Shown here piece after piece: positions 1 through 39,985 of a stretch of 64,000 bases of DNA. The notes under the pieces were generated by a model. The model searched no databases. It was not told where the DNA came from and saw only the letters and a program-made list of their open reading frames with translations. Numbering within the stretch: the first letter of the stretch is position 1; every line of letters starts with the position of its first letter. The stretch comes from Sphaerochaetaceae bacterium (GTDB lineage Bacteria; Spirochaetota; Spirochaetia; Sphaerochaetales; Sphaerochaetaceae): assembly GCA_963677735.1 (NCBI GenBank), contig OY782505.1:3192770-3256769 (forward strand). The letters are read 5' to 3'. The translations under genes and the position numbers were made by a program.

Positions 1-16
1 CTTTTAAAAAATTCAT
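1..16 (-). CDS. 5' end of a leftward gene running off the window (only 5 codons visible, MNFLK...)
   Basis: The reverse strand reads AAGGAGactaaATGaattttttaaaag, a strong RBS 5 nt before the ATG. The gene is divergent from the TetR gene at 160. It is too short to identify. Confidence 0.3.
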
Positions 17-28
17 TTAGTCTCCTTT

Positions 29-56
29 GTATACACTTATATATAAGTATACACTT
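29..56. promoter_or_regulatory. Operator candidate in a divergent promoter region
   Basis: A perfect 14-bp palindrome ACTTATATATAAGT (35-48) sits inside two direct copies of GTATACACTT (29-38 and 47-56). It lies between the leftward gene start and the TetR gene. Confidence 0.35.
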
Positions 57-159
57 GTATTTTTTTTCTATTAATATAATAATTATATTTGAAAAGCTAA
101 GTCAATATTTCTAAGGAAGTTTGCACACATTGCTTAAATTTGTATACTGAGAGGTTTAA

Positions 160-729
160 ATGAATTTTACTAAAAAAGATTTACCAAATTTAACGAGAAC
201 AAAAAGATGGATAATTTCAGCACTTTTTAGACTGATGGAAACAGATGAATATAAAAAAATAACAATCACACAAATAATTGATGAAGCTGAAATTGCAAGA
301 AGAACTTTTTATGTCCATTATAAAAACAAGCATCAAATTATTAAGGAGTATATTGATGAAACTTTTAGTAGAATTTGGTTAGAATTCAATCAAGCTAAAC
401 AAAAATCACTTTATGATATTGCCTATTATTCTTTTAGTGAATGTTTCAAACATATTGAAATACTAAGAGTATTGCACAAACATAACCTGTCCAATTATTT
501 TTATGAGCAGTTTATAATTAAAATGAATAAAACTACAAAAGAATCTAATTTGGCTGTTTTCGACGTTTCTGATTTTTCTGAATCAGAAATGATATATTTG
601 AACATATTTCATGCTTCAGGTTTGGTTAAAATGATTGACCGATGGATCCAGGATGGTTGTGAAGACACACCAGAAAAAATGGCTGCCTTATATGTTAAGA
701 TTTGTAAGATTGGAATACTAAATGATTGA
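160..729 (+). CDS. TetR/AcrR family transcriptional regulator
   Basis: N-terminal TetR HTH (ITITQIIDEAEIARRTFYVHYKNKHQII). A GAGAGG RBS precedes the ATG at 160. Confidence 0.85.
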   Translation: MNFTKKDLPNLTRTKRWIISALFRLMETDEYKKITITQIIDEAEIARRTFYVHYKNKHQIIKEYIDETFSRIWLEFNQAKQKSLYDIAYYSFSECFKHIEILRVLHKHNLSNYFYEQFIIKMNKTTKESNLAVFDVSDFSESEMIYLNIFHASGLVKMIDRWIQDGCEDTPEKMAALYVKICKIGILND

Positions 730-753
730 AAATAATAAGATGAATCAGAAATA

Positions 754-1416
754 GAAGTTAAAATTATTTGTGGATATGAATTAAGATCTACAGGTTTTAA
801 CCTAAAAAGAGAATTAGATAAAGCTAATATTAATTGTAAAATAATGGCCCCTACTACAATATATAAAAAAAGATGGTAATCGAGTAAAGACAGATAATTT
901 AGATGCTAGAAATTTATCTCAAACATTATTTTAGAAAGAAAAAAGTAAGTAGTTCTAATCTCAGTTGAAGATGAAGCTACTAGAGACTTCATTAGAATGA
1001 GAGATGATATAAAAACACCATAAAAAAGCAAAGTAACAGTTAAAATCATTTATTCTAAGAAGAAATATTCATTACCCATTTCAAGAAGGAGCTTGGACTG
1101 ATGCATACAGATAATAGTTAAAGACTATTAAATTTGATTTAATGATTAATCAAATAACTTATAAAAAATATTTAGTAGAAATATATATATTGAAAGAAGT
1201 TATAGAGCGTTTTGATATAAAGATTGAAGAATTATCTAAAAATGAAAAATATAAAGAAGATGTAAAAAGATTACGGGGCTTTATAGGAATAGATCACATA
1301 TAGCTTTATCTATAGTATGTGAAGTAAAAGATTTTGCAAGATTTAATAAAGAAAGAGAGTTTTCATCATTTATGGGCTATGTGCAAGAGAATTATCTTGT
1401 TTTATCTAGGGAATGA
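754..1416 (+). pseudogene. Degraded, 5'-truncated IS110-family transposase gene (multiple frameshifts and stops)
   Basis: Three-frame reading gives EVKIICGYELRSTGFNLKRELDKANINCKIMAPTTIYKKR, then GNRVKTDNLDARNLSQTLF, then EDEATRDFIRMRDDIK. Further on it gives IALSIVCEVKDFARFNKEREFSSFMGYVQE. These match the conserved IS110 blocks (KTDxxDA; EIGDxxRFxsxxqfxSyxGL). No intact ORF remains. Confidence 0.6.
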
Positions 1417-1876
1417 TAACAAATAATATTTATGTCGAAATTGCATAATTAAAAAACTTAATAAAATGAAAAGTAAAGTAAAAGATGCATAAATAGATTG
1501 CTGACAGTAAAAGATCTAGCTATCTTCGATCAAATTATGATATACAAAATGTGATTCTCGCCATTAAAGAGAAAGAGCTGTAGGCGGATTATTTAGACTA
1601 TTGGTAACCAATCCACGTATATGAAAATAGTCAAATGCTGAAAACTGTAATATATGTTTATCAATTTATTACTATTTTTATTAGATTACATAAAAGTAAA
1701 ATGAAATATTAATAAAAAATAAGTGAAAATAGCTACTTGGCAGTAGTCACACATATGAATTTTTTAAAAATGTCTTAAAAGAAATCTCAAAGCTGAGATT
1801 ACAGTAGGTGTTGAAAAATATTTTCTACTTTTATAAGCGTTATGGTTTTAGAATGTAAAACCAATTTTTAGATAGG

Positions 1877-2386
1877 TCATTCGAATTTTAGTATTTCCAA
1901 TACTGAATTAGATATTTCTTTTTGGTCTAGCGGAGATTCATCTTCTAAAAAAGATAACAAAGAAGCAAAAAGTCCCCCAACAATGAATGTCCTTTGGACA
2001 TGATTAAAAGAATCTTTATATTTCCCTTTAGATAAAACAATATTCAAGTATTTTTCAAAAGGACGGTACATAACCATATGGAGGTTGTTTTTTAGATAAA
2101 GTTTGATATCAGATTTTAAAATTTGCCAAAAATTAAAACATTGAATCAAGGCTTCTTCTAAATCAAATTCTTCGCCTTGAAGTGATGAAATATATTCAGA
2201 GAATACTCGGTCAAAATGAAATTGAAGGATATCTTCCTTCTTCTCAAAATTTCTATAAAAAGTAAGTCTTGCTACTCCCGCTTTTTCAGTTATATCAGTA
2301 ATGGTAATCTGATCATAGGACTTTTCTTTTAATAGTAATAGTAATGCATCAGCTATCCATTGTTTACTTCTTTCTGATTGTTTCAT
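1877..2386 (-). CDS. TetR/AcrR family transcriptional regulator
   Basis: TetR HTH ITITDITEKAGVARLTFYRNFEKKEDIL. Transcribed divergently from the 2527-6011 operon. Confidence 0.85.
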   Translation of the reverse strand: MKQSERSKQWIADALLLLLKEKSYDQITITDITEKAGVARLTFYRNFEKKEDILQFHFDRVFSEYISSLQGEEFDLEEALIQCFNFWQILKSDIKLYLKNNLHMVMYRPFEKYLNIVLSKGKYKDSFNHVQRTFIVGGLFASLLSFLEDESPLDQKEISNSVLEILKFE

Positions 2387-2469
2387 AGCTTATAACCTCC
2401 ATAAGTGTAATAAAATCAACTATATTGTATCTTCTATTCTAGATTTTAATTAATTATAATTGAGTTATT

Positions 2470-2498
2470 AGTGTTACAGTTATAACACTTGTTACACT
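2470..2498. promoter_or_regulatory. Candidate TetR operator
   Basis: Inverted repeat AGTGTTA-cagtta-TAACACT (2470-2489), immediately followed by a further TGTTACACT half-site. It lies about 30 nt upstream of the 2527 start. Confidence 0.4.
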
Positions 2499-2526
2499 TT
2501 TAGTCAAAATTTAGGAGAAACAAATT

Positions 2527-3153
2527 ATGATTCTATTTTTAACTTTACTTAGTGGTGTTGCGTGGACAATAGTTTATATTGAAGCAATTAGGAAAGGGTT
2601 TAAAGATAAAACTTATGCAATGCCGCTTTTTGCATTAGGACTTAATATTGCATGGGAAGCTATTTATTCTATTACTGGGTTAGCAAATCCTAGTATTCAA
2701 ACGCCTGTTAATTTTATTTGGTTTGGACTTGATGTAGTGATTGTTATTACGTATTTTTTATATGGCAAAAAAGAATTTCCTAATAATGCAAAGAAATATT
2801 TTATACCATACAGCATACTTGCCTTTGCAACAACCTTTGCAATTCAGATGGCTTTTTACTTACATTTTTCTAGATCAGAAGCAGCTTCATATTCAGCATT
2901 TTTACAAAATGCAGCCATGTCGATACTATTTTTGACAATGATATTTCAACGTCAAAGCAAAAAAGGTCAATCCGTACTTCTATCTGTTGCTAAATGGATA
3001 GGTACTCTTGCTCCTGTTATAAGTTTTGGTTTATTAACGGAATTCAATATATTTGTTTTTATAACAGGAATTATATGTAGTGTGTTTGATATTATTTATA
3101 TCGTTGTATTAGTAAAATGGGATTCCATTAAAACTTCTACAAAAACATCGTAA
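2527..3153 (+). CDS. Polytopic membrane protein, Pyr4/PaxB-like (transmembrane terpene cyclase family candidate)
   Basis: AGGAGA RBS. About 6-7 hydrophobic helices. The block WTIVYIEAIRKGFKDKTYAMPLFALGLNIAWEAIYS resembles the conserved N-terminal block of fungal PaxB/Pyr4-type cyclases as I recall them. There is a C-terminal Asp in SVFDIIY. It is certainly a membrane protein; the family call is tentative. Confidence 0.5.
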   Translation: MILFLTLLSGVAWTIVYIEAIRKGFKDKTYAMPLFALGLNIAWEAIYSITGLANPSIQTPVNFIWFGLDVVIVITYFLYGKKEFPNNAKKYFIPYSILAFATTFAIQMAFYLHFSRSEAASYSAFLQNAAMSILFLTMIFQRQSKKGQSVLLSVAKWIGTLAPVISFGLLTEFNIFVFITGIICSVFDIIYIVVLVKWDSIKTSTKTS

Positions 3154-3171
3154 TTTTAAGGTGAAACTAAA

Positions 3172-3966
3172 GTGACAATTTTATATTTTACTGCAACTGG
3201 AAATAGTCTTTACGTGGCGAAACGGTTAGGGGGGACTTTATTTTCAGTTACTCAACAAATTAACCTAGAAAATTTTGTATATAAAGATGACAAGATTGGG
3301 ATAATATTTCCAGTTTATGGGCTATCGATTTCACAGTATATTGAAAACTTTATTAGCAAATGTACTTTTGAGACAAATTATCTTTATGCAATTATGACTT
3401 ATGGTCAATATGCGGGTGGAGTAACAGGATGTCTTAATAAGATTGCAAGGAAAAATTCTCTAGAGTTTTCATATATCAATTCTGTAAAAATGATTGATAA
3501 TTGGTTGCCTGGATTTAAAATGGAAGATCAGATAGGTACTGTAGGAGAAAAAGATGTCAACGGCCAGCTTGAGAAAATAATAAGGGATGTTAATTCAAAT
3601 GTGTGTTGGCAAAAAAAAGATAGCATTTTTGATAGATTTGCAACATCTATTTTAAAAAAAATGAAACCAACAAAGAAAAAGAAAGTAAGGTTTCACACAG
3701 AAGGTTTGAGAGTGTCAAATTATTTTTTCATTGATAATTCGTGTGTAGAATGCAGTATATGTACGAAAGTCTGCCCGGTAAAAAATGTTGAATTAAAGAA
3801 TTCAAAACCTTCTTTCAATGATAAATGCATCAGTTGCCTTGCTTGTGTGCAAAATTGTCCGAAAAAGGCGATTAGGGTAAAAGGTGAAAAAAGTCACGAG
3901 AGATACAGAAATTCAGAAATAAGCTTACAAGAAATAGTTGAATCTAATAATAGAATTGATAAATAG
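3172..3966 (+). CDS. Flavodoxin-like / 2x[4Fe-4S] ferredoxin fusion protein (EFR1-type)
   Basis: GTG start with AAGGTGA RBS. N-terminal flavodoxin-like YFTATGNSLYVAKRL. Two ferredoxin motifs, CVECSICTKVCP and CISCLACVQNCP. Confidence 0.8.
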   Translation: MTILYFTATGNSLYVAKRLGGTLFSVTQQINLENFVYKDDKIGIIFPVYGLSISQYIENFISKCTFETNYLYAIMTYGQYAGGVTGCLNKIARKNSLEFSYINSVKMIDNWLPGFKMEDQIGTVGEKDVNGQLEKIIRDVNSNVCWQKKDSIFDRFATSILKKMKPTKKKKVRFHTEGLRVSNYFFIDNSCVECSICTKVCPVKNVELKNSKPSFNDKCISCLACVQNCPKKAIRVKGEKSHERYRNSEISLQEIVESNNRIDK

Positions 3967-4001
3967 CGATAAATAATACAATAAGATTAGGAGTAATTAG
4001 G

Positions 4002-4370
4002 ATGACAATATTTGATAAATACTTTACTTTTTGGGACTCTGCTCTTTTAGATGAGTCTGCATTTAATGAATTGATGGACTTGTTTGCTGATGATGTAGTG
4101 GTTAAAGCACCTCAAGGCGAAGTGAAAGGTAAAGATAAATTAGGATTCGGTATTAAAGAAACATTAAAAAATTATTTTTCTATGAAACATGTTTGGAAAG
4201 AAAAAAATACGGATTATGGGCTAAAAGCGACATGGGCAGTTGTTCATGAATTGAAAAATGGAGAAATGCATGCTGCCGTAGGTGTTGATATTATCCAACT
4301 CAATGAATCCGGAAAAATAAAGCATTTAGAAATCAGACCGGAACAAAATATAACAAAAAAAATCCAATAA
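4002..4370 (+). CDS. NTF2/SnoaL-like small protein
   Basis: 122 aa with an AGGAG RBS. Its size and alpha+beta cone-like pattern (FWDSALLDESAFNELMDLFADDVVV...) fit SnoaL/NTF2-like proteins. Confidence 0.55.
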   Translation: MTIFDKYFTFWDSALLDESAFNELMDLFADDVVVKAPQGEVKGKDKLGFGIKETLKNYFSMKHVWKEKNTDYGLKATWAVVHELKNGEMHAAVGVDIIQLNESGKIKHLEIRPEQNITKKIQ

Positions 4371-4441
4371 TATTATTCTGCAATAAAGCAGGGTAGTATT
4401 TTGGTTTTTTCTAAAATTGATAATTTAAAAAGGAGGGAGGT

Positions 4442-5206
4442 ATGAATAATGCAGATACAGTTTATGTAAATATGCATAAAATATATGCAGGGAGGTTAAA
4501 ACTCGGTGTTGAAAGCGTTCCTGTTGAGTTTTATCTTATTGAGCATAAAAAAGGAATAATACTCTTTGATACTGGTATGCCTAGAGAATGTATGGATAAT
4601 CTCTCTGAATATTGGGGCGAGATGATAGCTAGTATGTCTGAAGTTGATATGACAGAGAATGAGTTAGTAGTAAATGCTATTAATAATCTTGGGTTTCAAG
4701 CTGAAGATATTAAATATGTCATTCAAAGCCATCTTCACTTAGATCACAGTGGCGGTATTGGATTATTTCCAAATGCAAACTATATAGTACAGCAAAGCGA
4801 ATGGGCTGCAGCACATGATTCCAAATATCCTTTTCCTATTAATCAACTTTACATACACAAAGATTTTGATAAACCAGTAAATTGGAAATTTCTCAAAGGA
4901 ATTGATGAAGATTGCTATGATCTGTTTGATGATGGATCTGTAATAGTTTGGTTTACGCCAGGTCATACACCAGGTCATCAAAGTTTAGTAATAAATACTA
5001 AAAATCACGGACACATTTTATTAACAGGAGATGCCTGTAACGATTATGCCACTTTACAAGGGGAAACAGGTTTTTCTTTGTGCTGGAATGAAGAAGAGTG
5101 TATAAAATCATTGAAGCGTATTCAAAAAGCAAAAAAAGATGGTTGGTTGCTACTCTTTCCTCATGATTCAAAGAATTGGAATAAAAATGAAAAATATTAT
5201 GATTAA
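4442..5206 (+). CDS. N-acyl homoserine lactonase-like metallo-beta-lactamase fold hydrolase (AiiA-like)
   Basis: HxHxDH motif SHLHLDHSGG, plus TPGHTPGHQSL and FPHD, closely paralleling the Bacillus AiiA motifs (HLHFDHAGG, PGHTPGHQS). GGAGGGAGG RBS. Confidence 0.8.
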   Translation: MNNADTVYVNMHKIYAGRLKLGVESVPVEFYLIEHKKGIILFDTGMPRECMDNLSEYWGEMIASMSEVDMTENELVVNAINNLGFQAEDIKYVIQSHLHLDHSGGIGLFPNANYIVQQSEWAAAHDSKYPFPINQLYIHKDFDKPVNWKFLKGIDEDCYDLFDDGSVIVWFTPGHTPGHQSLVINTKNHGHILLTGDACNDYATLQGETGFSLCWNEEECIKSLKRIQKAKKDGWLLLFPHDSKNWNKNEKYYD

Positions 5207-5225
5207 TCATAAGGAGGATAATTTT

Positions 5226-6011
5226 ATGGAACTATTAAAAGACAAAATAGCTATTGTAACTGGTGGAGCAAGTGGTATGGGTGCTGCCTATGCAAAACGT
5301 TTTATTGAAGAAGGGGCAAGGGTAATCTTTACTGATATCAATGAAGAACTCGGAACTGCTTATCAAGTTGAGTTAGGAAATCAAGCAGAATTCTATAAAC
5401 ATGATGTAGCTGATGAACAGCAATGGAAAGATCTTGCTTCGTTGGTTAAAGAAAAATATGGACATGTTGATGTTTTAGTAAATAATGCAGGTATTGGTGG
5501 TAACAAACCTATTCTAGATTTTCCAGTAGACTTATATATGCGTGTAGTTTCAGTAGACCAAGTTTCTGTACTTTTAGGTATGAAATATATTGGTGGTTTA
5601 ATGGCAAAACAAGGTAGCGGATCTATTATCAATATTGCTTCCACAAGTGGTCTTGATGGGCAGATATTTGGTGCGGCATATTGTAGTGCTAAATGGGCTG
5701 TTAGAGCTCTATCAAAAACTGGAGCACTTGAGTTTGCAAAATACAATGTGCGTGTAAATTGCTTGCTTCCCGGTTTTGTAGATACACCTTTAGTTTCTGC
5801 TCCTGAATATGCACAACTAAGAGCAAATTATGAAACGACAATTCCTCTTGGTCGGGCAGGGAAAGTCTCTGAAATTGCCAAGGCCTGTTTATTTCTTGCT
5901 TCAGATATGTCAAGCTATTGTAATGGCACAGAGTTAGTAGTTGATGGAGGATTGAGTTCCAATGCCCACGCATATTCTGATTATATGATTCGAAATTTAA
6001 AAATGTGGTAA
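5226..6011 (+). CDS. Classical short-chain dehydrogenase/reductase (3-alpha/20-beta-hydroxysteroid dehydrogenase-like)
   Basis: TGGASGMG cofactor motif, NNAG, catalytic YCSAKWAV. I chose the ATG at 5226 (MELLKDK) because AAGGAGGA lies 8 nt upstream. The ORF track opens earlier, at 5139. Confidence 0.85.
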   Translation: MELLKDKIAIVTGGASGMGAAYAKRFIEEGARVIFTDINEELGTAYQVELGNQAEFYKHDVADEQQWKDLASLVKEKYGHVDVLVNNAGIGGNKPILDFPVDLYMRVVSVDQVSVLLGMKYIGGLMAKQGSGSIINIASTSGLDGQIFGAAYCSAKWAVRALSKTGALEFAKYNVRVNCLLPGFVDTPLVSAPEYAQLRANYETTIPLGRAGKVSEIAKACLFLASDMSSYCNGTELVVDGGLSSNAHAYSDYMIRNLKMW

Positions 6012-6092
6012 TTGTGAAACATATTTAAATCATATTATTGTGGCGGATTGAAGTTTATTACTCAACCAACACTAGTCGTGATATTAATTTAA

Positions 6093-6345
6093 TTATTGCT
6101 CCTCTTGTTTTATTAAGTTTAAGAAACTTTCAACATCAGGAGCATTAAAAAGATTATCTCTAAAAGATTTATGACTTAATATACGAGCTAATCTACTTAA
6201 TATTCTTAAATGGTAACTACTACTTTTTTTGGGGCAACAAGTAAAAATACAAGTTTAACATTTTTTTTATCAAGTGCTTGTAGATTAATTTAAGTTTTAA
6301 GAGGCCTAACTGTTATCAATGATTTTTCCATTGATGAACATCTAT
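6093..6345 (-). pseudogene. Fragment of a PTS EIIA (fructose/mannitol/Ntr type) gene, frameshifted
   Basis: The reverse strand reads ...NVKLVFLLVAP, then a frameshift in an A-run, then KKSSSYHLRILSRLARILSHKSFRDNLFNAPDVESFLNLIKQEEQ*. This matches the typical EIIA-2 C-terminus (vxlvFllaxP....HLxxLaxLsrlLxdxxfrxxLxxaxxxeei). The upstream part is riddled with stops. Confidence 0.4.
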
Positions 6346-6787
6346 TTCAAATCCGCAATATTTAAATAAGCGTTTTCTAACAAACCCGCACTTTTTTAAA
6401 TAGCTAAGTCTTTGCAAAATAACAATTCTCATAAATTGATTTTATCCCCAACACTTAAGAATGTCTAAGAAAATTCAAAATGCTTAAGTAGTTTTATTAA
6501 AGAATAATTATTATCTACACTGAATTACTATTAGTGTGTAATTGTAAAAATTTGTGTTAATTTTTACAAATAGGATTCACAAATATTACTGAACAAACTT
6601 CATAGATACATAGTATTTTTTTAAAGTTCTTTAAGTCTTATAATTTTATTTAAAAAAAAATTAAACGAAATCTTATTAAAGATTATATTTTCAAATTAAT
6701 TTGATATAAAACTTGTTTATATCAAGTATGTTCGATAGTGATAGAATATACTTGATGAATATTGATTATAGTGATAATATAAATATT

Positions 6788-8017
6788 ATGAATATAAAAC
6801 AATTAAGATTAGTTTATTCGATACATTTATTTTTAAACTATTTACCTCTTGGGATATATTTTCCTATCAGTACTCTCTTTTTATTAGAAAAGGGATATTC
6901 ACTTGGATGGATAGGAACTGCTATGTCTATATTTTCTATCACGATCTTTTTGTTTGAGTTGCCGACGGGTGGTTTTGCAGACAAATATGGAAGAATAAAT
7001 ATATATAGAATAAGCAGAGTTATATATATTTTAAGCTTGTTAATCTTATTATTCTTTAATACTTTATTCTCTTTGTTTTTTTCAATGTTTTTATACGGGG
7101 TTGCTCGTGCTTTAAGTTCAGGAACAATGGAAGCCTGGTTTGTTGATATGCATGATACAGTTGATAGTAAAATAAATTTATCCAAAAGTATGAGTATTGT
7201 AGCAGGGGTTGCTCCAGCTGCACTAGGTATAAGTACTTTGTTAGGTGGATTTATACCCGACTTAGGAATTAAATTGAATTTGTTTAATTTACAAGGAAGC
7301 TATAATTTTAATATTGTGATAGCAATAATAGCTGTTGTAATGCATTTGATTTTGAATATTATATTTTTCAAAGAGACTCAAAGACAATCTAATGAAGAGA
7401 CAATAAATGAATATTGTAAAAATATTGTTAATTTTTTTAATAAATCAAAATCCCTTAAATACTTGATAGCTATTTCTTTTTGTCTTGGAATTGGATTAAA
7501 CTCAATTGAAAGTTTTTGGCAACCAAAGGTACAAGAAATTGCTCCAAACAGTCCAACATTTATTTTAGGAGTACTTGCATCATGTTATTTTTTTGCAGCT
7601 ACAGTTGGTAGTTTATTTTCAAATAAATTAACCCAATATTTAGGCGAAAAAAGAACATTATTTTTAATGAAATTATTTCATGGAATTACCTTAATAGCTT
7701 TAAGCTATAGTGCATCTTTGGTTGGTTTTTCTATAGGATTTGTTACTATATTTATATTCCATGGTGCTTTGAATGGCCCTCATCAAACATTGCTACACAA
7801 TTCAATACCCAATCAATATAGATCAAGTTTTCTTTCAGTAGATTCTTTAGCATTACAATTAGGTGGTGGATTGTCTGCTTTAATATTAGGCTGGGTTGCA
7901 CAATATAATTCAATATCTTTAGTTTGGAAAATTGCTGGATTGTTTGTAATTATTTCTTCATTCTTATATCTACCAATAAAGCAATCAAAAGGAGAAAATT
8001 GTGAATCTACAATATAA
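6788..8017 (+). CDS. MFS transporter
   Basis: About 12 hydrophobic segments. MFS loop motif GGFADKYGR. The ORF opens at TTG 6713; I chose ATG 6788 (MNIKQLRLVY...) as the most MFS-like N-terminus. No candidate start has a clear RBS, so the start is uncertain. Confidence 0.8.
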   Translation: MNIKQLRLVYSIHLFLNYLPLGIYFPISTLFLLEKGYSLGWIGTAMSIFSITIFLFELPTGGFADKYGRINIYRISRVIYILSLLILLFFNTLFSLFFSMFLYGVARALSSGTMEAWFVDMHDTVDSKINLSKSMSIVAGVAPAALGISTLLGGFIPDLGIKLNLFNLQGSYNFNIVIAIIAVVMHLILNIIFFKETQRQSNEETINEYCKNIVNFFNKSKSLKYLIAISFCLGIGLNSIESFWQPKVQEIAPNSPTFILGVLASCYFFAATVGSLFSNKLTQYLGEKRTLFLMKLFHGITLIALSYSASLVGFSIGFVTIFIFHGALNGPHQTLLHNSIPNQYRSSFLSVDSLALQLGGGLSALILGWVAQYNSISLVWKIAGLFVIISSFLYLPIKQSKGENCESTI

Positions 8018-9002
8018 TGAATCAGTAGAATTAGTATTAGCCTTTTTCGCTTGGACCTCTCAAGAGATGGGAGAATCATATTTTATGAATCAAATCCCTA
8101 AAGAAATAATTGAGTGGAAAGATAATCAAAATAAAAAATATTCTAACTTTTTTTTAGAACAATCAAAGTTATTGAGCTCAGAATTTCTTTTATTAATCTT
8201 TTCATTAATTAAGATTATTAACGTGAATAAAATTAATAGTGTTGATGAATTTATTCAATATTTGTCAAAGCTATCGGGAAAGTCTCTAGCTAAATATGTA
8301 ATTATGGGCGAGGATTTTGATTATGATATAGATCAATTAATTGAAAATCCTAAATTAGGTAAAGAAGTGATTGATAAAGCTGATGGAACAGTTAGAAAAA
8401 ATGAGGATGAACTATTTGTTGATTTTTTAAGCCACCCTGATTTTTATAGAGAACAATTATTTATACATTTAAAAAAGTTTTATAAATATTCAGTTCTTCC
8501 TTATCAAAAAGATATTTCTAAAAGAATGAATAGGCTATTAGAAGAAGAAAAAAAATTTGCTTTAAAGAATAAAAAAGCTTTTTTTGAGACAAGATTACAT
8601 TATAATACCCAATCAAATTGGGAAAATTTTCCAGAAACTATATACATTAGTTATTATGATTGTCTCGATTCTATACATATTAATTTACCATCTTTAGTAA
8701 TTTATGGTTGGAAAAATAAAGATTTCAATTCTAATCCTAATATTGAAGAAATCTATGGATTAATTACAGATGAAACGAGAAGAAATATTATTAAAGGTTT
8801 ATCAAAAAAAGATATGTTCAGTCGTGAAATTTCTGACAAATGGAATCTTTCACCATCAACTGTTTCATATCATATGAATAAGCTATATTCATTGGGATTA
8901 ATTAATCATAAACCAGGTCCAAGAAAGCGCTTATATCATGTTCTAAATAAAGAAAAACTTAACCAATTACTAGAATATTTAAAAAAGGATTTAATGGGAT
9001 AG
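8001..9002 (+). CDS. ArsR/SmtB-type winged-helix regulator with a ~250-aa N-terminal extension (DUF5937-like architecture)
   Basis: GTG start with AAAGGAGA RBS, overlapping the MFS stop by 17 nt. C-terminal wHTH DETRRNIIKGLSKKDMFSREISDKWNLSPSTVSYHMNKLYSLGLINH. Confidence 0.7.
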   Translation: MNLQYNESVELVLAFFAWTSQEMGESYFMNQIPKEIIEWKDNQNKKYSNFFLEQSKLLSSEFLLLIFSLIKIINVNKINSVDEFIQYLSKLSGKSLAKYVIMGEDFDYDIDQLIENPKLGKEVIDKADGTVRKNEDELFVDFLSHPDFYREQLFIHLKKFYKYSVLPYQKDISKRMNRLLEEEKKFALKNKKAFFETRLHYNTQSNWENFPETIYISYYDCLDSIHINLPSLVIYGWKNKDFNSNPNIEEIYGLITDETRRNIIKGLSKKDMFSREISDKWNLSPSTVSYHMNKLYSLGLINHKPGPRKRLYHVLNKEKLNQLLEYLKKDLMG

Positions 9003-9173
9003 AATAATTAATTATTTTGATGTTTGAATGAAAGTTTTAAAAAAGTTGATTTGTCCATTTTAAACTCTTTATGTATATACTTAGAGCTGTTATGCATTTA
9101 ACTTATTTAGGATTTACATAATATAAATTAATTAAAACAAAATTTATAAAGAACAAAAAGGATAAAAAGTAAT

Positions 9174-9692
9174 ATGAATAAAACAGAATTAATAAAAGAT
9201 ACTAGCTCTATAAATATTTTGCCAATAGAGAAATGTGATATAAATAAATATTTTATTGCAATCAAAGAAATGGATGAAGAAGCTAAATATTATACAAATA
9301 CTTTGCTTGATTTTACTTTTAGCCAGATAGAAGAATATGTTTTAAAAATTGAAAAAAGTAATTCAAGGAACCTTTTTTTAATTATTCTAGGAAATGAATA
9401 TCTTGGAGAAGTGGCATTATCAGATATAAGTGATAAGTCTTGTCATTTTAGAATATGTATATATAAAAAAGAAAATTTTTCAAAAGGATATGGTAATTTC
9501 GCTTTGAATTGGATAATTCAATATGCTTTTTCTACACTAAACCTTAGTGAAATTGAGCTAGAAGTTTATCCTTTTAATAAAAGAGCAATAAACTTATATG
9601 AAAAATTTGGATTTAAAGAAACCCATAGAATTTTTGATAATTCAAATTCTAAACCATATGATGAAATTATTACAATGTTGCTAAAAAAATAA
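9174..9692 (+). CDS. GNAT family N-acetyltransferase
   Basis: 172 aa. GNAT-like core (LGEVALSDI..., SKGYGNFALNWIIQYAF, NKRAINLYEKFGFKE). Confidence 0.75.
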   Translation: MNKTELIKDTSSINILPIEKCDINKYFIAIKEMDEEAKYYTNTLLDFTFSQIEEYVLKIEKSNSRNLFLIILGNEYLGEVALSDISDKSCHFRICIYKKENFSKGYGNFALNWIIQYAFSTLNLSEIELEVYPFNKRAINLYEKFGFKETHRIFDNSNSKPYDEIITMLLKK

Positions 9693-10368
9693 AATTTAAA
9701 ATATTTAATTTGTTTAAGTTCGAATAGAATTTGACTTATAATTTAATTTCATAAATCCTTTTGATTATTAAAAACACATTTTTTATTTTACGTTTTATTG
9801 ATTAAATAAATAGAAGTTTTTTAGATTAAATTTAAGAAAAACAGCTAAAAGATATTTAAAAGTAAATTCAACTTTTAGATTTAACACTAAATTAAATAGT
9901 AGAAAAAGTGAAACATTATCTAAAAAACAACAAATATGATTGTTGTAAATTTAATTTAATAATCGGTTAAAATTTTAAAACATAATGATCTGTTGTATAA
10001 AATGTATTTGAAAAAGGAATGCTAATTTTTTCAATTGATATTTAAAGTTTTACCATCACAATAATACAATTTATCAGGAAATTGAAATTATATAATTAGA
10101 GATGCAATTATTTAAATTCTTTTAAAATTGCTATTTACAACTTTAAATTCTATAAAAAAGTATATTAGCTTTAGAGAGATAAAGTTTGCCTTTAATAGAG
10201 CGATAGTTTAATTCTCGTTAATGAATTAGTCATTTTATAATGTGTTTTACTATATATATTTTAAATTTTTTATTTGATTTAATTTATTATTTATTTTTTA
10301 ACTGTAAATAATTTTATTTTTTTAACTTATAAGGTTCTTTTCCCTTGTGATAAAACTATATCAACTGT

Positions 10369-10399
10369 AATGTTAATGATATAAAGTATCATTAACATT
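10369..10399. promoter_or_regulatory. Perfect 13-bp inverted repeat (operator or 5'-leader hairpin) upstream of the RND operon
   Basis: AATGTTAATGATA-taaag-TATCATTAACATT. It ends 33 nt before the adaptor start codon at 10433. Confidence 0.45.
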
Positions 10400-10432
10400 G
10401 TTGTTTTACGATACACTACAACGAGGTGCCAT

Positions 10433-11530
10433 ATGAACCGTGCAGTAAACATTTTATCGATTAGTTTAATATTATTTATTTCTTTAATTTTTTCTTCATG
10501 CACAAAAAATGTAGAAGAAAAAGATTTTCTTGTGATAGATGAAGTTTCAGCAGTAACTGACTACACTCAAGTAGTATCCTCAGCTGTTGAAATAAGAAAA
10601 GCCGCTTTGCGGGATCGTGTGCTTGCTAGTGGAACTATTCAAGGCGTCGAGGAAGTAAATATCAAAGCACGGACTTCAGGCGTTATAAAATCAATAGATT
10701 TTAATTTGGGTTCAAAATTGGAAAAAGGCCAAGTGCTTTTAGTCTTAGATGATACAATTCCATCATTGAACGTTAGTCAGTTGAATAATCAGTATGAAAA
10801 TAGCGTAAAAGAACTTAATGCAAATAAACAATTATATGATCGAGGAGCTATCTCGCTTGTTCAATTGACCCAAACTCAAAGCAATGTTGATGGTCTTAAA
10901 GCTCAACTTGAACAAGTTAAAACTAATCTGAATAATACAAAAATCATAACACCTATAGCTGGTAGTGTGGCAGAGAAAACCAATTTTGTTGTTGGTGATT
11001 TAATACAAGCGGGAGAGTCAATTGTTAGAGTTGTAGATCTTGAACATCTTCGAATTACTGTTGCTGTAGGTCAAAAACAACTCTTCCTTATTAAGGAAGG
11101 TGCCCCAGCTCTCATTACTATTAATACACCTACAGAGATTATTGAAGCACAAGGAATTGTAAGTGGTATCAGTGCTAGCAGTGATTCAAGAACAGGTAGT
11201 TGGTCTGTACTTGTAGATTTTACTAATCCAAAACCTTCTGTTATTAAGGCAGGAATTAGTGCTGATGTAATAATTTTTAATGAAGATGCACCAATTTATA
11301 CATTGGTACCAAACTCTGCAATGGTTTATCGCGATGGGGTAACTTCAATATATATGGTAGATGGCAATAGTGCAAAACAGGTTAATGTGAAAGTAATTGA
11401 CCAATACGGAGACCAAAGTGCCATTGAAAGTCTTGATGAAAATATTGACCTCGTAGGAAAGAAAGTACTAGTAAGTGCGCTCTCTCGTATTTTAGATGGT
11501 ACCTCTGTAGTAACACAAGAAAACTTATAA
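10433..11530 (+). CDS. Efflux RND transporter periplasmic adaptor subunit (HlyD/AcrA family), lipoprotein
   Basis: Lipobox LIFSSC. Lipoyl/barrel-sandwich and coiled-coil pattern, with TKIITPIAGSV. GAGGTG RBS. Confidence 0.85.
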   Translation: MNRAVNILSISLILFISLIFSSCTKNVEEKDFLVIDEVSAVTDYTQVVSSAVEIRKAALRDRVLASGTIQGVEEVNIKARTSGVIKSIDFNLGSKLEKGQVLLVLDDTIPSLNVSQLNNQYENSVKELNANKQLYDRGAISLVQLTQTQSNVDGLKAQLEQVKTNLNNTKIITPIAGSVAEKTNFVVGDLIQAGESIVRVVDLEHLRITVAVGQKQLFLIKEGAPALITINTPTEIIEAQGIVSGISASSDSRTGSWSVLVDFTNPKPSVIKAGISADVIIFNEDAPIYTLVPNSAMVYRDGVTSIYMVDGNSAKQVNVKVIDQYGDQSAIESLDENIDLVGKKVLVSALSRILDGTSVVTQENL

Positions 11531-11541
11531 AGGAACAGATT

Positions 11542-14500
11542 ATGGATAACCAAAAAAGATTTAGTATTGGTAGATTCTCTGTAACCAAGCCGGTGATGGT
11601 AAATATATTAATGATAACCGTTCTACTATTAGGTGGCTTAAGTTTAGCACGTCTACCACAAGAACAGTTTGCAGAGATTCCATTTTTTTGGGTCAACGTC
11701 ATTGTTCCTTATCCTGGAGTTGGAGCTGAAGATTTAGAGTCATCAATTACTATCCCAGTAGAAAACGCATTTCAAGGTATGGATAAACTTAAGAAAATAA
11801 GCTCAACCACTAGTGAAGGGCTTAGTGTTGTTAGGGTTGAATTTGATGATGGTATTAGTCAGCAAGAGTTTAATTCTCTTTATCAAGAGGCTCAAACTAG
11901 GTTCAGTCAAGTTGTATTACCAGATGGTGTTCTTGACCCTATTGTTGATGATTTTTCATCATCTGACTTTCTTCCTGTTATTGAGGTTGTAATCAGTGGT
12001 AATTTACCATATGAGCAATTAAGAGAACAAGCTGTATCCCTACAGAATAAGATACTAAAGGTAAAGGACGTCGCTGATGTTGAGTTACTTGGACTTCCTG
12101 ATAGACAGATTTTAATTAACTTGGATAATAGTAGTCTTATTTCTAAGGGGTTGAGTGTTAATGAAGTTGTTAGAGCTATTTCTGATCAAAACAGTGTTAT
12201 CCCTAGTGGAACATTAAATACGGGTTCAAGGGAGTATCTTTTAAGGACTCTTGGTTCAATTGATAATGTATCTGACTTCGGTTCTGTAATTGTAAGACGT
12301 TCTACAGATTCCTCAGGATTAGTAAGAGTTAGTGATGTTGCAGAGGTAGTTGATGGCTTTGATCCAGATTCATCTCTTGCTCGTTTCAATGGTAACCCTT
12401 CTGTAAATTTAAGGGTTATTAAAGTTGTAAAAGGTAACTCAGTTGATATAGTAGAAGGTGTTACTAAAATTGTAGAAGAAGAGAGAATGCAAAATAATGT
12501 AGGAGCAAAGATTACTCTATTTAATGACTCAACTGTCCAAATCGCTTCAAGTTTAAGTGTGCTTTCTACAAACGCAATTATGGGGCTTTTTTTACTAGTT
12601 CTTATCCTTTGGCTATTTATTGGACTTCGTAATGCTCTAATAACAGCTTTAGGTATACCTGTAACTTTTGCTTTGACATTTCTTGTTTTAGACTTACTAG
12701 GAGAGACAATAAACACAAATACTTTATTTGGTCTAGTTTTAGTTTTAGGGCTTATAGTCGACCATGCAATTGTAATTATAGAGAATTCTTATCGGTTACA
12801 GTCTAACGGACTTCTACGTCATGATGCAGCAATAGAGGGGTCAAATCAAGTTATATGGCCAGTTGTTGCGGCAACAGCAACAACTGTAGCTGCCTTCTTG
12901 CCTCTTATGCTTCTACCAGGGACTATTGGAAAGTTTCTCAGAGTTATTCCTTTAACCGTAACAATTGCTCTAATAGTTAGTACTGGAGAAGCCCTTTTCT
13001 TTCTCCCAAGTCATTATGCTGAGTGGGGGCCAAGAGAAAAGAAGAAAAGGAAAAAAGAACCCGGGATTTGGTTTATTAAAATACAGAGAGGTTATTCTAA
13101 ATTCTTTGCTAAGGTTTATAAATTTAAAATTCTCGCCCTTATTCTTGCTTTAGTGCTTACAATTGGTGTCTTCTCTCTAATAGGATCTCTACGTCAAGAT
13201 CTTTTTTCAGCTGAAGATTATTCCTATTTCAATATTGAGATACTAACTCCGCGAGGTACTTCTTTAGATCAGACAAATATAATTGTTGAACAGTATGAGG
13301 ATATTCTGCTTAATAAGGTAGGAAATGGTGAGATAATGTCTATTAGTACTAAGATAGGGACATTAGGAAGTGGAGAAGCTAATTCCACTCAAGCTCAAAT
13401 AACTGTTGACCTTGCTGAGATTGGTGAAGGTAGAATGAGAAGTATTGATGAAATTATTTCTGAAGTTCAAAATGAAACCTATTATCTAAGTGGAGTTGAA
13501 AAGGTGTTTTTCCGTAAAGCACAAAATGGCCCGCCTACTGCAGATCCTCTGAGTTTTCGTTTCTCCGGAGATGAGTATAAGCAGATTATTGATTCATCAA
13601 ATGCTATAGTAAATTTGTTGAACTCCATTGATGGAGTAACAAATGTCGAGAGTGACTTTATAGCAGGTAGCCCTGAACTTCGTATTATTATTAATCAAGA
13701 ACGTGCAAGCGCACTTGGAATAACAGTGGCTAGTGTAGGCTCCTATATTCGTGCTCGATTTGATAATATACCAGCAGGAATTCTCTTTGAGAAGAATGAA
13801 CAAATAGATATTGTAGTACGTTTTGCGACATCTGATTCTAGACAGTATGAAAATCTTGAGCAATTATTGATACCCACAGATGATGGAAGACAGATTCCTT
13901 TATCTAGCATTGCAACCATTAAACTTGATAATTCCTTAGGATCGATTCGTAGGGTTGAAGGTAAACGTGAGATAACAGTTACTGCAAATGCTGTTGAATC
14001 CTTAGATCTTCAACAGGTTAACCAACGAGTAGAAGAACTTTGGAATAAAAATCTATCTAGCCGTTATCCTAATGTATCTTTTAAAGTAGGTGGAGAATTT
14101 GACGACTTTAATACTTTAATATTTGATATACTAAGAGTCTTTATACTTGGAATATTTTTAATCTACCTGATTCTTGGAACACAATTTAATAGTTATAGTC
14201 AGCCTCTATTGATATTATTTTCTATACCGTTTGCCTTTATTGGTGTTGTTTTATATTTATTTATTTCAGGTACTCCACTTTCAACAACAGTTATCTACTC
14301 TAGTGTAGCATTGGCAGGGATTGCCGTAAATGATGCAATTGTGTTGATTAGTTTTATTAATGAATTGAGAGCGACTGGAATATCTGTCAAGGAAGCTATA
14401 TCAGAAGCAGCTAGAACAAGACTTCGACCTATTATACTAACATCCTTAACTACGATTGTTGGCCTATTGCCAACAGCGATTGGAATAGGTGGTTACTCTG

Positions 14501-14628
14501 TAGTTTGGTCGCCTATGGCTAGTACTATTATCTTTGGATTAATATTTTCTACACTAACTACATTGTTCATAATTCCCATTCTATATGGAACTATATATGA
14601 CAAAAAGAAGAAGAGGAGTGAAGCATGA
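11542..14628 (+). CDS. RND efflux pump inner-membrane permease (AcrB/AcrD/AcrF superfamily)
   Basis: 1028 aa. Duplicated architecture: TM1, large periplasmic loop, then 5 TMs, twice. The N-terminus FSVTKPVMVNILMITVLLLGGLSLARLPQEQFAEI is typical. Confidence 0.9.
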   Translation: MDNQKRFSIGRFSVTKPVMVNILMITVLLLGGLSLARLPQEQFAEIPFFWVNVIVPYPGVGAEDLESSITIPVENAFQGMDKLKKISSTTSEGLSVVRVEFDDGISQQEFNSLYQEAQTRFSQVVLPDGVLDPIVDDFSSSDFLPVIEVVISGNLPYEQLREQAVSLQNKILKVKDVADVELLGLPDRQILINLDNSSLISKGLSVNEVVRAISDQNSVIPSGTLNTGSREYLLRTLGSIDNVSDFGSVIVRRSTDSSGLVRVSDVAEVVDGFDPDSSLARFNGNPSVNLRVIKVVKGNSVDIVEGVTKIVEEERMQNNVGAKITLFNDSTVQIASSLSVLSTNAIMGLFLLVLILWLFIGLRNALITALGIPVTFALTFLVLDLLGETINTNTLFGLVLVLGLIVDHAIVIIENSYRLQSNGLLRHDAAIEGSNQVIWPVVAATATTVAAFLPLMLLPGTIGKFLRVIPLTVTIALIVSTGEALFFLPSHYAEWGPREKKKRKKEPGIWFIKIQRGYSKFFAKVYKFKILALILALVLTIGVFSLIGSLRQDLFSAEDYSYFNIEILTPRGTSLDQTNIIVEQYEDILLNKVGNGEIMSISTKIGTLGSGEANSTQAQITVDLAEIGEGRMRSIDEIISEVQNETYYLSGVEKVFFRKAQNGPPTADPLSFRFSGDEYKQIIDSSNAIVNLLNSIDGVTNVESDFIAGSPELRIIINQERASALGITVASVGSYIRARFDNIPAGILFEKNEQIDIVVRFATSDSRQYENLEQLLIPTDDGRQIPLSSIATIKLDNSLGSIRRVEGKREITVTANAVESLDLQQVNQRVEELWNKNLSSRYPNVSFKVGGEFDDFNTLIFDILRVFILGIFLIYLILGTQFNSYSQPLLILFSIPFAFIGVVLYLFISGTPLSTTVIYSSVALAGIAVNDAIVLISFINELRATGISVKEAISEAARTRLRPIILTSLTTIVGLLPTAIGIGGYSVVWSPMASTIIFGLIFSTLTTLFIIPILYGTIYDKKKKRSEA

Positions 14629-16202
14629 AAAAATATCTACTACTAATATTAAGTATCCTATTCTCTGTTGCATCATCTTTTGCTGCAACTAACTATCCTT
14701 CTCTAGATATACAATATGAACTAGAAAATGAAGATGAAGTTGTTCTAGATCAAGAAAGCTTGAATACATTTATTCAACAATGGCAGGATGATTCTATTAT
14801 CACTTTCTCTGATGCAGAAAAAGAGTTGTATATTGCTCTTAGAGAGAGAAATATAGATCTTGAACAATTACAATCATTATATAATATACAACAAGAGCAG
14901 CTAGAGTATCAAAAGAGAGAGCAAGGTTTCAAGATAGGGCTTACTTCTCAACCCCTTTACTCTATAAGTAGAAGTATTAACCAAACTTCTACTGGAGGTT
15001 TTGATCTTTCCAATACCTTTGGTTTAGGTGCCTCAATCTCTAAACAACTTAGCACAGGGGCAGTTGCAACTTTAAGTGCAGCTCAAAAGTCTAGCTTAAC
15101 GAAAAATAGCACAACAGGATCTCAGTGGACGTGGACACAGAGTCCCTCCGCAAACCTTTCTTTGAATCAACCCTTATGGATTGGTGATGGTTTAATAGAT
15201 GTAGATTACTCGAAAAAACAGATAGAAAAATTAGTTATATCATCTGAGAATGCAAAGCTTTCTTATGACCAACTTTTAGAAGCCCTTGTCACTCAGGGAA
15301 ATAGCCAACTATCAGCCCTTCAAGCTCTGAAAGAGAGAAGATTTCTTCTAGGTGAGCAACTTATCATAGAGCAATCTTTAATTAAAGACGCTAAGAAAGA
15401 TTTAGAATCAGGTTGGATAAGTCGCAACTCATATGATGTAAGAGTTCTTAGCATCAATCAAATACGTTACTCGCTTGATGAGATTGAGAGGGAAATTGAC
15501 TCTCTAAAAAATTCCCTAGAAACTATATGGGGGAGCGATGATTTTCCTAAACAAATCATTATAGATAAGCAATTATTTGATAGATTACCAACAATTATCT
15601 TTGATAAAGAACAGCTTTTAAATATACTTTTAGCAAATGATTTTGCCTACGCACAGGCAACTAGACAACTGCGTTTAGCTGAGATAGATGCAAAGTTAAA
15701 GAGTCCAAGTGATGCTCCAATGTTAAGCTTATCTCTTCAAATCTATCCTTATTATACTCCAAGTACAGGAGCAGATTTCTTTACATCTTTCGACAATATG
15801 TTTACTAGTAGTGAGAATATATTTTCTTTATCAATAGGTTTTAGTGCTTCAGACCTTTTTCGCTCTGCTACTAATCTATCCTCCTCTATGGCCTCAGAGT
15901 CTGTTTTACAGGCAAAGATAGAGGTTGAGAAGGCTCGTGATGATTTAGAAATACAGGTTGAAGAGATTCAAAGAAATATTAAAGGTTTATTGCTCAACTT
16001 ATCAATTGCTCAGTATGAGTTTGAGCAACGCACAAATGATATAGAAGTGGAGCGAATTAGATTTGATATAGCAATGGCAAATGAGAGTAGTATAAAAGCT
16101 AAAGAAATTGCTTGGTATGACTCTGCCTTTAAGATTTTGCAAACCTTACGCGAGCTAAACTTGATAGCCTTAGACTTAAAAGCTAGAGGATTAGAGTTAT
16201 AA
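14625..16202 (+). CDS. TolC-like outer membrane efflux protein
   Basis: Start overlaps the RND stop (ATGA). Signal peptide ...SVASSFA. Long coiled-coil-rich repeats typical of outer membrane factors. The sequence is divergent. Confidence 0.7.
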   Translation: MKKYLLLILSILFSVASSFAATNYPSLDIQYELENEDEVVLDQESLNTFIQQWQDDSIITFSDAEKELYIALRERNIDLEQLQSLYNIQQEQLEYQKREQGFKIGLTSQPLYSISRSINQTSTGGFDLSNTFGLGASISKQLSTGAVATLSAAQKSSLTKNSTTGSQWTWTQSPSANLSLNQPLWIGDGLIDVDYSKKQIEKLVISSENAKLSYDQLLEALVTQGNSQLSALQALKERRFLLGEQLIIEQSLIKDAKKDLESGWISRNSYDVRVLSINQIRYSLDEIEREIDSLKNSLETIWGSDDFPKQIIIDKQLFDRLPTIIFDKEQLLNILLANDFAYAQATRQLRLAEIDAKLKSPSDAPMLSLSLQIYPYYTPSTGADFFTSFDNMFTSSENIFSLSIGFSASDLFRSATNLSSSMASESVLQAKIEVEKARDDLEIQVEEIQRNIKGLLLNLSIAQYEFEQRTNDIEVERIRFDIAMANESSIKAKEIAWYDSAFKILQTLRELNLIALDLKARGLEL

Positions 16203-33070: not shown

Positions 33071-33118
33071 ATCCCTATATAAATTAAATTGTAGCATATT
33101 AATTTGCTTTAAATTTAA

Positions 33119-33153
33119 TGAGAGTGTTAATATTTTTTATATCAACACTCTCA
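33119..33153. terminator. Hairpin between the convergent sulfatase and LacI genes
   Basis: TGAGAGTGTT-15 nt-AACACTCTCA, a 10-bp perfect stem with AT-rich flanks. Confidence 0.5.
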
Positions 33154-33216
33154 ATTTGAATAATTAATTTATAAAAGCCATAATTTTAAATATATATCCT
33201 TTTAATATTAAAATAG

Positions 33217-34281: not shown

Positions 34282-34294
34282 TTTTTTCTCACCC

Positions 34295-34326
34295 TTTGTT
34301 AGTATATAAAATTTGTTAGTATATAA
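34295..34326. repeat. Tandem direct repeat, 2 x TTTGTTAGTATATAA with 17-bp period
   Basis: Identical copies at 34295-34309 and 34312-34326, 14 nt upstream of the LacI start. Confidence 0.6.
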
Positions 34327-34374
34327 GTATTATTACATAGGAATAACGAAAAAACAAGAAAAAAAGAAAAAAAT

Positions 34375-34434
34375 TAAGAAATTTTTCTTATTTTTCCTAC
34401 AAAATTAACAAAAAAATTGAAAAATTTTTCTTGA
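34375..34434. promoter_or_regulatory. Two related A/T palindromes in the tct promoter region (candidate operators)
   Basis: TAAGAAATTTTTCTTA (34375-34390, 7/8 arms). TTGAAAAATTTTTCTTGA with a perfect core GAAAAATTTTTC (34419-34430) overlaps a TTGACT -35-like hexamer. Confidence 0.35.
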
Positions 34435-34487
34435 CTTACCAATATTCGTCGGTTACTCTGTTACAGATTTAAAAAAAGGAACGAATA

Positions 34488-34934: not shown

Positions 34935-34959
34935 ATAATTTTCTAAAAGGAGTTTTTTT

Positions 34960-35919: not shown

Positions 35920-35940
35920 TTATTAGTTTAGGAGTGAATT

Positions 35941-37476: not shown

Positions 37477-37486
37477 GGATTTAGAA

Positions 37487-38956: not shown

Positions 38957-38971
38957 TAATAGGAAGAGATT

Positions 38972-39973: not shown

Positions 39974-39985
39974 AAAGGAAAATTC

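Follow-up and report, generated by a model that had tools for sequence, protein, structure and literature searches.

What does a Pyr4-type transmembrane terpene cyclase do in a bacterium when no terpenoid genes lie near it? The question is raised by a 64,000-nucleotide stretch of the genome of a Sphaerochaetaceae bacterium (contig OY782505.1), here called the window, in which an open reading frame (ORF) at 2527..3153 (+) had been recognized, in a reading of the sequence alone, as a homologue of the fungal Pyr4/PaxB cyclases. Enzymes of this type are prized for building the scaffolds of fungal and actinomycete meroterpenoids, and genome mining retains only the copies that lie by terpenoid genes. 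The sequence-only reading considered a bacterial copy to be unusual and saw no obvious role for it. We find instead that the gene heads a five-gene, operon-like cassette with a divergent TetR gene, and that it represents a large, highly conserved bacterial branch of the Pyr4 type that lies outside terpenoid biosynthetic gene clusters (BGCs).

The gene begins with an ATG codon, with AGGAG 8 nt upstream, and encodes the 208-residue polytopic protein that had been described, with the diagnostic block GVAWTIVYIEAIRKGFKDKTYAMPLFALGLNIAWEAIYS at residues 10-48 and SVFDIIY at residues 185-191. A Pfam search returned PF25129, the Pyr4-like transmembrane terpene cyclases, at 97.4 bits (cutoff 27, E 1.4e-27, residues 4-169), and no other family at E<=1, so that no transporter-family profile is matched; PF25129 is also carried by all listed homologues from both of our protein searches. 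No NCBIfam model matches the protein, and a sequence search of the PDB returned no relative. The Pfam alignment ends before the last helix, and that region was tested separately by HHalign, with the full-length fungal Pyr4 homologues of Supplementary Data 7 of PMC11109268 as the comparison set. By BLASTP the cyclase is 25-31% identical to 12 of these fungal homologues (E 1e-14 to 8e-21), and a profile of the cyclase and 35 homologues aligned with the fungal profile at 99.95% probability (E 2e-37) over residues 3-205, corresponding to 22-234 in the Aspergillus homologue.

The active-site residues of Pyr4 are Glu-63 and Asp-218 (PMC6486709), and we assigned their columns through the numbering of close homologues of Pyr4. 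Glu-44 of the window protein, in the AWE motif, shares a column with the fungal glutamate (Glu-63 in the Aspergillus sequences), and Asp-188 shares one with the fungal aspartate (Asp-217 in the Aspergillus burnettii homologue), SVFDIIY being paired in the alignment with the fungal FILDVSY. Both residues are invariant in 83/83 bacterial sequences (80 loci) and 12/12 fungal ones, which upholds the suggestion that the two acidic positions of Pyr4 are preserved here; the glutamate has been proposed as the Brønsted acid of bacterial Pyr4-like cyclases (PMC13307353). In the bacterial alignment the row of the Streptomyces clavuligerus pSCL4 homologue, extracted in a wrong frame, is disregarded. The residues common to the bacterial clade and the fungal proteins are Trp-13, Tyr-17, Asn-40, Trp/Tyr-43, Glu-44, Trp-65, Arg-142, Gly-147, Gly-159, Asp-188, and Tyr-191. 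Among the fungal sequences the closest relative is HDV00_012830 of the chytrid Rhizophlyctis rosea (PMC11109268, Supplementary Data 7; 30% identity, E 8e-21, the alignment reaching Asp-188), which has bacterial-type residues in the columns of Asn-128, Gln-148, and Lys-156 and, judged from this alignment, may mark either a transfer between bacteria and fungi or an ancestral state.

An AlphaFold2 model, built with a 36-sequence alignment, is confident (pLDDT 93.5, pTM 0.87) and consists of seven long helices followed by a short C-terminal helix. Each helix presents one strongly conserved face, with invariant residues spaced i, i+3/4, and i+7, and the lysine-rich loops suggest an N-out/C-in topology. 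The gene is under purifying selection, with a dN/dS of 0.095 between the window copy and that of a Sphaerochaeta metagenome-assembled genome (MAG; locus L083). Because the PF25129 match, the fungal alignments, the conservation of Glu-44 and Asp-188, and the confident seven-helix model all agree, family membership is solid, and by sequence we regard the protein as almost certainly a true Pyr4-like transmembrane terpene-cyclase family member.

The view that a bacterial copy is something unusual did not hold. Relatives of the cyclase are present in 371 of 185,579 species genomes (one genome per species), the best 80 of these species having copies 46-80% identical to ours. These 80 are spread over Bacillota, Actinomycetota, Chloroflexota, Bacteroidota, Acidobacteriota, and Pseudomonadota, with one archaeal MAG record in addition. 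A protein homologue search gave 608 clusters at E<=1e-3, of which the best 120 are 51-90% identical to the cyclase, and an exhaustive profile search gave 1498 clusters (50% identity) at E<=1e-3, of which 214 reach E<=1e-30. Several members are already named "transmembrane-type terpene cyclase" in RefSeq or UniRef. The hosts of the clade include rumen, gut, and lactic-acid bacteria, and many are fermentative anaerobes. There was no match in phage sequences, and plasmid matches came from Streptomyces and Nostoc only (32-45% identity). A 2026 JACS survey likewise found 1107 bacterial Pyr4-like sequences in nr and retained the 264 with terpenoid genes nearby, just four of them from Bacillota (PMC13307353). 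By these numbers three quarters of the bacterial homologues fail the terpenoid-neighbor filter, and most loci of the window type would be what it drops.

After the Sphaerochaeta MAG copy, the closest cyclase is that of Bengtsoniella (Bacillota), at 80% identity with a partner TetR 66% identical to ours, a likeness that suggests exchange between phyla. The Bengtsoniella chromosome carries the cyclase gene twice, at two sites apart from each other (L003 and L004), and the gene is duplicated in tandem in MAGs of Muribaculaceae and Candidatus Onthomonas and in Lawsonibacter (L034, L058, and L067).

We surveyed the neighbors of the cyclase by calling ORFs in 81 loci and clustering the neighboring proteins, with Pfam run on the immediate upstream and downstream genes of 78 loci; the calls in high-GC loci are approximate. 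A TetR_N domain in the immediate upstream gene (33 of 78 loci) is the sole strongly recurrent neighbor. Counting the window, 26 loci have a divergent TetR gene 0-300 bp from the cyclase; the TetR gene is co-directional in Microbacteriaceae and on a Streptomyces plasmid, where it overlaps the start of the cyclase gene. Loci with more similar cyclases tend also to have more similar TetR proteins (Spearman 0.57 over 325 pairs, shared phylogeny contributing), and the pair therefore appears to travel together. In the window the two genes are separated by 140 bp, within which lies an inverted repeat that is a candidate TetR operator (Table 1). Half-sites of the form TGTTACA/TGTAACA occupy the matching position in the loci of Sphaerochaeta and Bengtsoniella, and the Flexilinea locus has a TGTAACA/TGTAACG pair. 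A promoter scan gave 20 matches against a mean of 24.6 in shuffled sequence, and we claim no promoter.

Behind the cyclase follow four genes on the same strand, with gaps of 16-71 bp throughout, encoding a ferredoxin, a SnoaL-like protein, a lactonase, and a short-chain dehydrogenase/reductase (SDR). The lactonase scores 206 bits against the AttM model, under the equivalog cutoff of 390. The EFR1 family also follows the cyclase in Paeniclostridium (L035). For the SnoaL-like protein the best characterized relative in the PDB, a weak one, is XimE (6isk, E 1e-4), which we take to be the pyran-forming cyclase of the pathway to the prenylated benzopyran xiamenmycin; this likeness would be a second, faint hint of prenyl chemistry in the cassette. 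By blastn, positions 1847-6035 of the window match positions 7321-11525 of the Sphaerochaeta MAG locus in a single block of 83.6% identity that runs exactly from TetR to SDR. The flanks differ, being a second TetR gene, a transposase fragment, and an MFS gene in the window, and phage-tail and diversity-generating-retroelement genes and a MatE gene in the MAG. One shared block between differing flanks marks the cassette as a discrete unit that relocated. In the MAG the cassette adjoins, over positions 1-6800 of that locus, phage-tail/baseplate genes and a pair resembling a diversity-generating retroelement (bAvd and a reverse transcriptase). The Transposase_20 fragment of the window (~1140-1409, an 89-residue ORF; 8045-8314 in the numbering of locus L001) lies between the two TetR genes, just left of the cassette.

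Table 1. Features of the cyclase cassette, in window coordinates (aa, amino acids; TM, transmembrane; AHL, N-acylhomoserine lactone)
Feature	Position	Strand	Details
TetR-to-SDR cassette boundaries	1847..6035	.	blastn block common to Sphaerochaeta MAG L083
TetR-family regulator, 169 aa, presumed cassette repressor	1877..2386	-	TetR_N 34 bits; divergent from cyclase
Candidate TetR operator, inverted repeat	2457..2502	.	Core AGTGTTA-N6-TAACACT; central palindrome GTTATAAC; repeated TGTTACA
Pyr4-type transmembrane terpene-cyclase homologue	2527..3153	+	208 aa, 7 TM helices; PF25129 97 bits
EFR1-family flavodoxin-like / 2x[4Fe-4S] ferredoxin, 264 aa	3172..3966	+	NF038196 184 bits, cutoff 75; 18 bp 3' of cyclase
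SnoaL/NTF2-like small protein, 122 aa	4002..4370	+	SnoaL_2 26.4 bits, slightly below cutoff 27; PDB 3er7 E 2e-10
MBL-fold lactonase, AttM/AiiA type, 254 aa	4442..5206	+	Lactamase_B; AHL lactonases E 3e-39
Short-chain dehydrogenase/reductase, 262 aa	5223..6011	+	adh_short_C2 210 bits; start ATG 5223, upstream start possible

The statement that the cyclase has no obvious role can thus be narrowed, given its conserved pairing with TetR and its place in a five-gene cassette; as to terpenoid genes the earlier description stands. Among 49 window ORFs annotated with Pfam there is neither a UbiA prenyltransferase nor a polyprenyl synthase, and terpene synthases, epoxidases, and squalene-hopene-type cyclases are missing as well. 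When the Pfam families of the immediate neighbors at the 78 loci were ranked by frequency, the top 25 on either side included none for a polyprenyl synthase, a prenyltransferase, a terpene synthase, or an epoxidase. The downstream genes vary from locus to locus and lean to redox functions (4Fe-4S ferredoxin 5, Flavodoxin_5 4, FMN_red 3, SDR 3, aldo-keto reductase 2, and Flavodoxin_2 2). A second, weaker association is with two-lipocalin proteins of the CrtC fold (carotenoid 1,2-hydratase-like), which score above the Pfam cutoff in five loci (L010, L019, L022, L055, and L067) and were found by BLAST clustering in L069 and in the window's own genome, the latter matching the CrtC models weakly; one CrtC-like protein is also annotated on the Streptomyces plasmid that carries a cyclase homologue. 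These hydratases are the only isoprenoid-linked family that we saw near the cyclase.

In the window genome the CrtC-fold gene (314 aa, L001 5975-6919) is on the minus strand, with its start near window position 14 and the rest beyond the left edge. It is divergent from the second TetR gene (160-729), so that a second pair of TetR and isoprenoid-type enzyme lies 2 kb from the cyclase. In a Lactobacillus locus (L010, 4583-8618) a CrtC-like protein, a 568-residue reductase with FAD_binding_2 and FMN_bind domains, and the cyclase stand in one row behind a divergent TetR; known members of the hydratase-fold and reductase families of that row act on C=C bonds. Farther along the window, positions 10433-16202 encode an RND-type tripartite efflux system, whose membrane-fusion protein and outer-membrane factor are Pfam-annotated and whose middle gene (1028 aa) was judged by its translation alone; the outer-membrane factor fits a diderm host. 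At 31496-41002 two sulfatase genes flank the gene of a LacI-type regulator and a TctABC tripartite transporter, followed by genes for Ldh_2-type and zinc-dependent dehydrogenases, in what looks like a sulfated-substrate utilization locus unrelated to the cyclase. The window is ~30% G+C throughout and contains a rubrerythrin gene, and its housekeeping proteins share 90%-identity clusters with those of Sphaerochaetaceae MAGs; the earlier description of the host as an AT-rich anaerobe is reasonable, and we take it to be presumably an anaerobic member of that family.

Set beside its fungal relatives (Pyr4, PaxB, AndB, AscF, and the HomoB-type proteins of onoceroid clusters), the window cyclase shares the Pfam family, an alignment over the full length, and seven transmembrane helices in about 200-250 residues. 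In contrast to them it is not clustered with a polyketide synthase, a PaxC/UbiA prenyltransferase, an epoxidase, or a squalene-hopene cyclase; epoxidation by flavin monooxygenases or P450s is unavailable to its presumably anaerobic host, and its partner is a TetR regulator. The bacterial clade also lacks the fungal loop before the last helix and has its own invariant residues, Gln-58, Asn-62, Gln-107, Gln-127, Asn-128, Gln-148, and Cys-184, in place of fungal phenylalanine, histidine, or cysteine. The characterized bacterial cyclases XiaH, TylF, DmtA1, GroF, and ZigF (PMC13307353) are of the same family, but by their description they are set apart from ours, lying beside prenyltransferase and P450 genes in meroterpenoid BGCs, most of them from Actinomycetota. 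That context, with prenyltransferase, polyprenyl synthase, and epoxidase neighbors, was found neither in the window nor among the neighbors at the 78 loci. With respect to the literature searched, what is new in this branch is its high conservation, its pairing with TetR, its place outside BGCs, its occurrence in anaerobes, and its own invariant polar signature; the family assignment itself is already in Pfam and RefSeq.

How might such a protein work? In the mechanism that we favor, TetR would bind the palindromic site upstream of the cyclase in the absence of inducer and repress both divergent promoters, until it is released by a lipophilic ligand, which would be the substrate itself or a related compound. 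The cyclase would then sit in the cytoplasmic membrane, where Glu-44, as the Brønsted acid assisted by Asp-188, would donate a proton to a C=C bond or epoxide in a compound that has partitioned into the membrane and so start a cyclization or isomerization that needs neither oxygen nor a cofactor. In the window genome the ferredoxin/flavodoxin protein, the SnoaL-like protein, the lactonase, and the SDR, as co-transcribed partners, would probably carry the product further. The substrate would most likely come from outside (an isoprenoid, a prenylated compound, or another olefinic lipid) and not be an intermediate of endogenous meroterpenoid synthesis, because precursor genes are missing, regulation is by an inducible switch, the cassette has moved within this lineage, the habitats are gut, rumen, and food, and CrtC-fold proteins recur nearby. 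Taken as a whole, this reading, in which an inducible membrane enzyme attacks a lipophilic olefin or epoxide by Brønsted-acid catalysis and without oxygen, is one to which we give about even chances.

Several observations weigh against this reading. The literature searched contains no characterized member of the clade, and the enzyme role is here predicted from sequence. An inducible TetR next to a small polytopic membrane protein is the classic layout of an efflux determinant, and the best fold matches in the PDB are to transporters and receptors. More than half of the loci lack an adjacent TetR, some of which may have been missed by crude gene calling in high-GC loci. The accessory genes vary by locus, which limits the proposed downstream pathway to the window cassette. 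Finally, the glutamine and asparagine residues of the clade-specific set, at positions where fungal cyclases carry phenylalanine, histidine, or cysteine, would be unusual in a cavity meant for carbocation stabilization.

The fold itself raises the most direct alternative, a small secondary transporter or exporter of the SWEET/PQ-loop type, induced through TetR by a toxic compound and using Glu-44 and Asp-188 for proton coupling. Foldseek placed SWEET (5ctg), cystinosin/PQ-loop (8dyp), and the KDEL receptor (6i6j) first, at TM-scores of 0.55-0.64 and probability 1.0, with no Pyr4-type structure among the matches; these proteins may share with the model a 3+1+3 bundle of seven helices and ~200 residues, and the SWEET topology is also N-out/C-in. 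The divergent TetR and the polar, Gln/Asn-rich conserved helix face would suit a transporter equally, and one JGI record calls a homologue a DMT-like permease. Against this, the fold matches have E-values of only ~1e-2 (rmsd 5-6 Å), and the cyclase has neither sequence nor profile similarity to SWEET, PQ-loop, or KDEL-receptor proteins, nor a PQ motif, nor a detectable internal repeat (N-half against C-half, HHalign probability 0.2%). Moreover, its conserved acids are those essential for the cyclase activity of Pyr4, the known function of the family is catalysis and not transport, its characterized members all being enzymes (PMC13307353), and the accessory neighbors (ferredoxins, flavodoxins, FMN reductases, SDR, and aldo-keto reductases) are enzymes and not transport partners. 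We therefore consider a transporter unlikely and an enzyme probable. The literature searched draws no link between the Pyr4 family and the SWEET/PQ-loop/KDEL receptor fold class; going by the model, the family may have originated from a seven-helix transporter scaffold.

An enzyme need not act on a foreign compound. The protein could simply be a cyclase of the cell's own isoprenoid or meroterpenoid biosynthesis, serving for example a cyclized quinone side chain or a carotenoid, with its partner genes elsewhere in the genome: the characterized members are all biosynthetic (PMC13307353; PMC11109268), 690 of 1050 fungal pyr4-like genes are also stand-alone (PMC11109268), and the Streptomyces copies hold a conserved position by a class-V aminotransferase gene, which suggests vertical inheritance as a core gene. 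This we judge to be doubtful in view of the missing terpenoid-pathway families, and the TetR regulation and the presence of the cassette at different genomic sites in this lineage are more in keeping with an inducible accessory trait than with core lipid synthesis. Many of the hosts are, besides, fermentative anaerobes, which often lack isoprenoid quinones. Still less probable, to our mind, is a cofactor-free detoxifier of unsaturated fatty acids of the C=C isomerase or hydratase type, analogous to the membrane linoleate isomerases of gut and rumen bacteria. The hosts are of the right kind (rumen, gut, and lactic-acid bacteria), the Lactobacillus row of hydratase-fold protein, flavin reductase, and cyclase resembles fatty-acid saturation pathways, and the validated isomerase BBI/LAI of Bifidobacterium breve is likewise a small polytopic membrane enzyme of a gut bacterium that carries out a one-step lipid C=C isomerization; its gene lai is induced by linoleate, with a TetR proposed as regulator from expression correlation (PMC12181875). 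However, no direct link joins the Pyr4-type family to fatty acids, and BBI is the product of a 993-bp gene, ~330 aa with nine predicted transmembrane helices (PMC9636412; PMC12048573), against 208 and seven here. We compared BBI (OM158463.1; CP006712.1) by published gene length, helix count, and host range, and its hosts B. breve, B. longum, B. dentium, and B. pseudocatenulatum are absent from the relatives of the Bifidobacterium scaligerum clade member.

The identity of the clade with BBI/LAI, which we had entertained, was rejected on these differences in length and helix number and on the search with the B. scaligerum protein, which gave no BBI-carrying species. A family member that matches BBI in length (P0253, 330 aa) comes from rumen Clostridia MAGs, and its length is coincidental.

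To return to the inducible membrane enzyme, a more specific form of it can be put forward tentatively, although we think it unlikely to be right in all its parts. The TetR-linked clade would then be non-biosynthetic and serve as an inducible, oxygen-independent resistance or biotransformation enzyme, which from its place in the membrane would neutralize prenylated or terpenoid compounds that act on membranes and are made by plants, fungi, or other microbes. A prenyl C=C bond would be protonated and cyclized, for instance onto a neighboring hydroxyl to give a chroman- or pyran-type product, and the SnoaL-like protein, lactonase, SDR, ferredoxin, or CrtC-like hydratase would finish the conversion, cassette by cassette.

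These data show that the TetR-linked group keeps the catalytic pair of the family in anaerobes that are unable to make epoxide substrates with oxygen. Should its members turn out to be transporters, they would show the recruitment of a seven-helix transporter fold for carbocation chemistry. Should they transform exogenous lipophilic compounds, the known biotransformations of the gut and rumen would gain an acid catalyst that is embedded in the membrane and needs no cofactor, and biocatalysis would gain a set of bacterial enzymes that are easy to express. A resistance function, if true, would give the Pyr4 family a new role in physiology, and gut, rumen, and food bacteria a new kind of xenobiotic defense.

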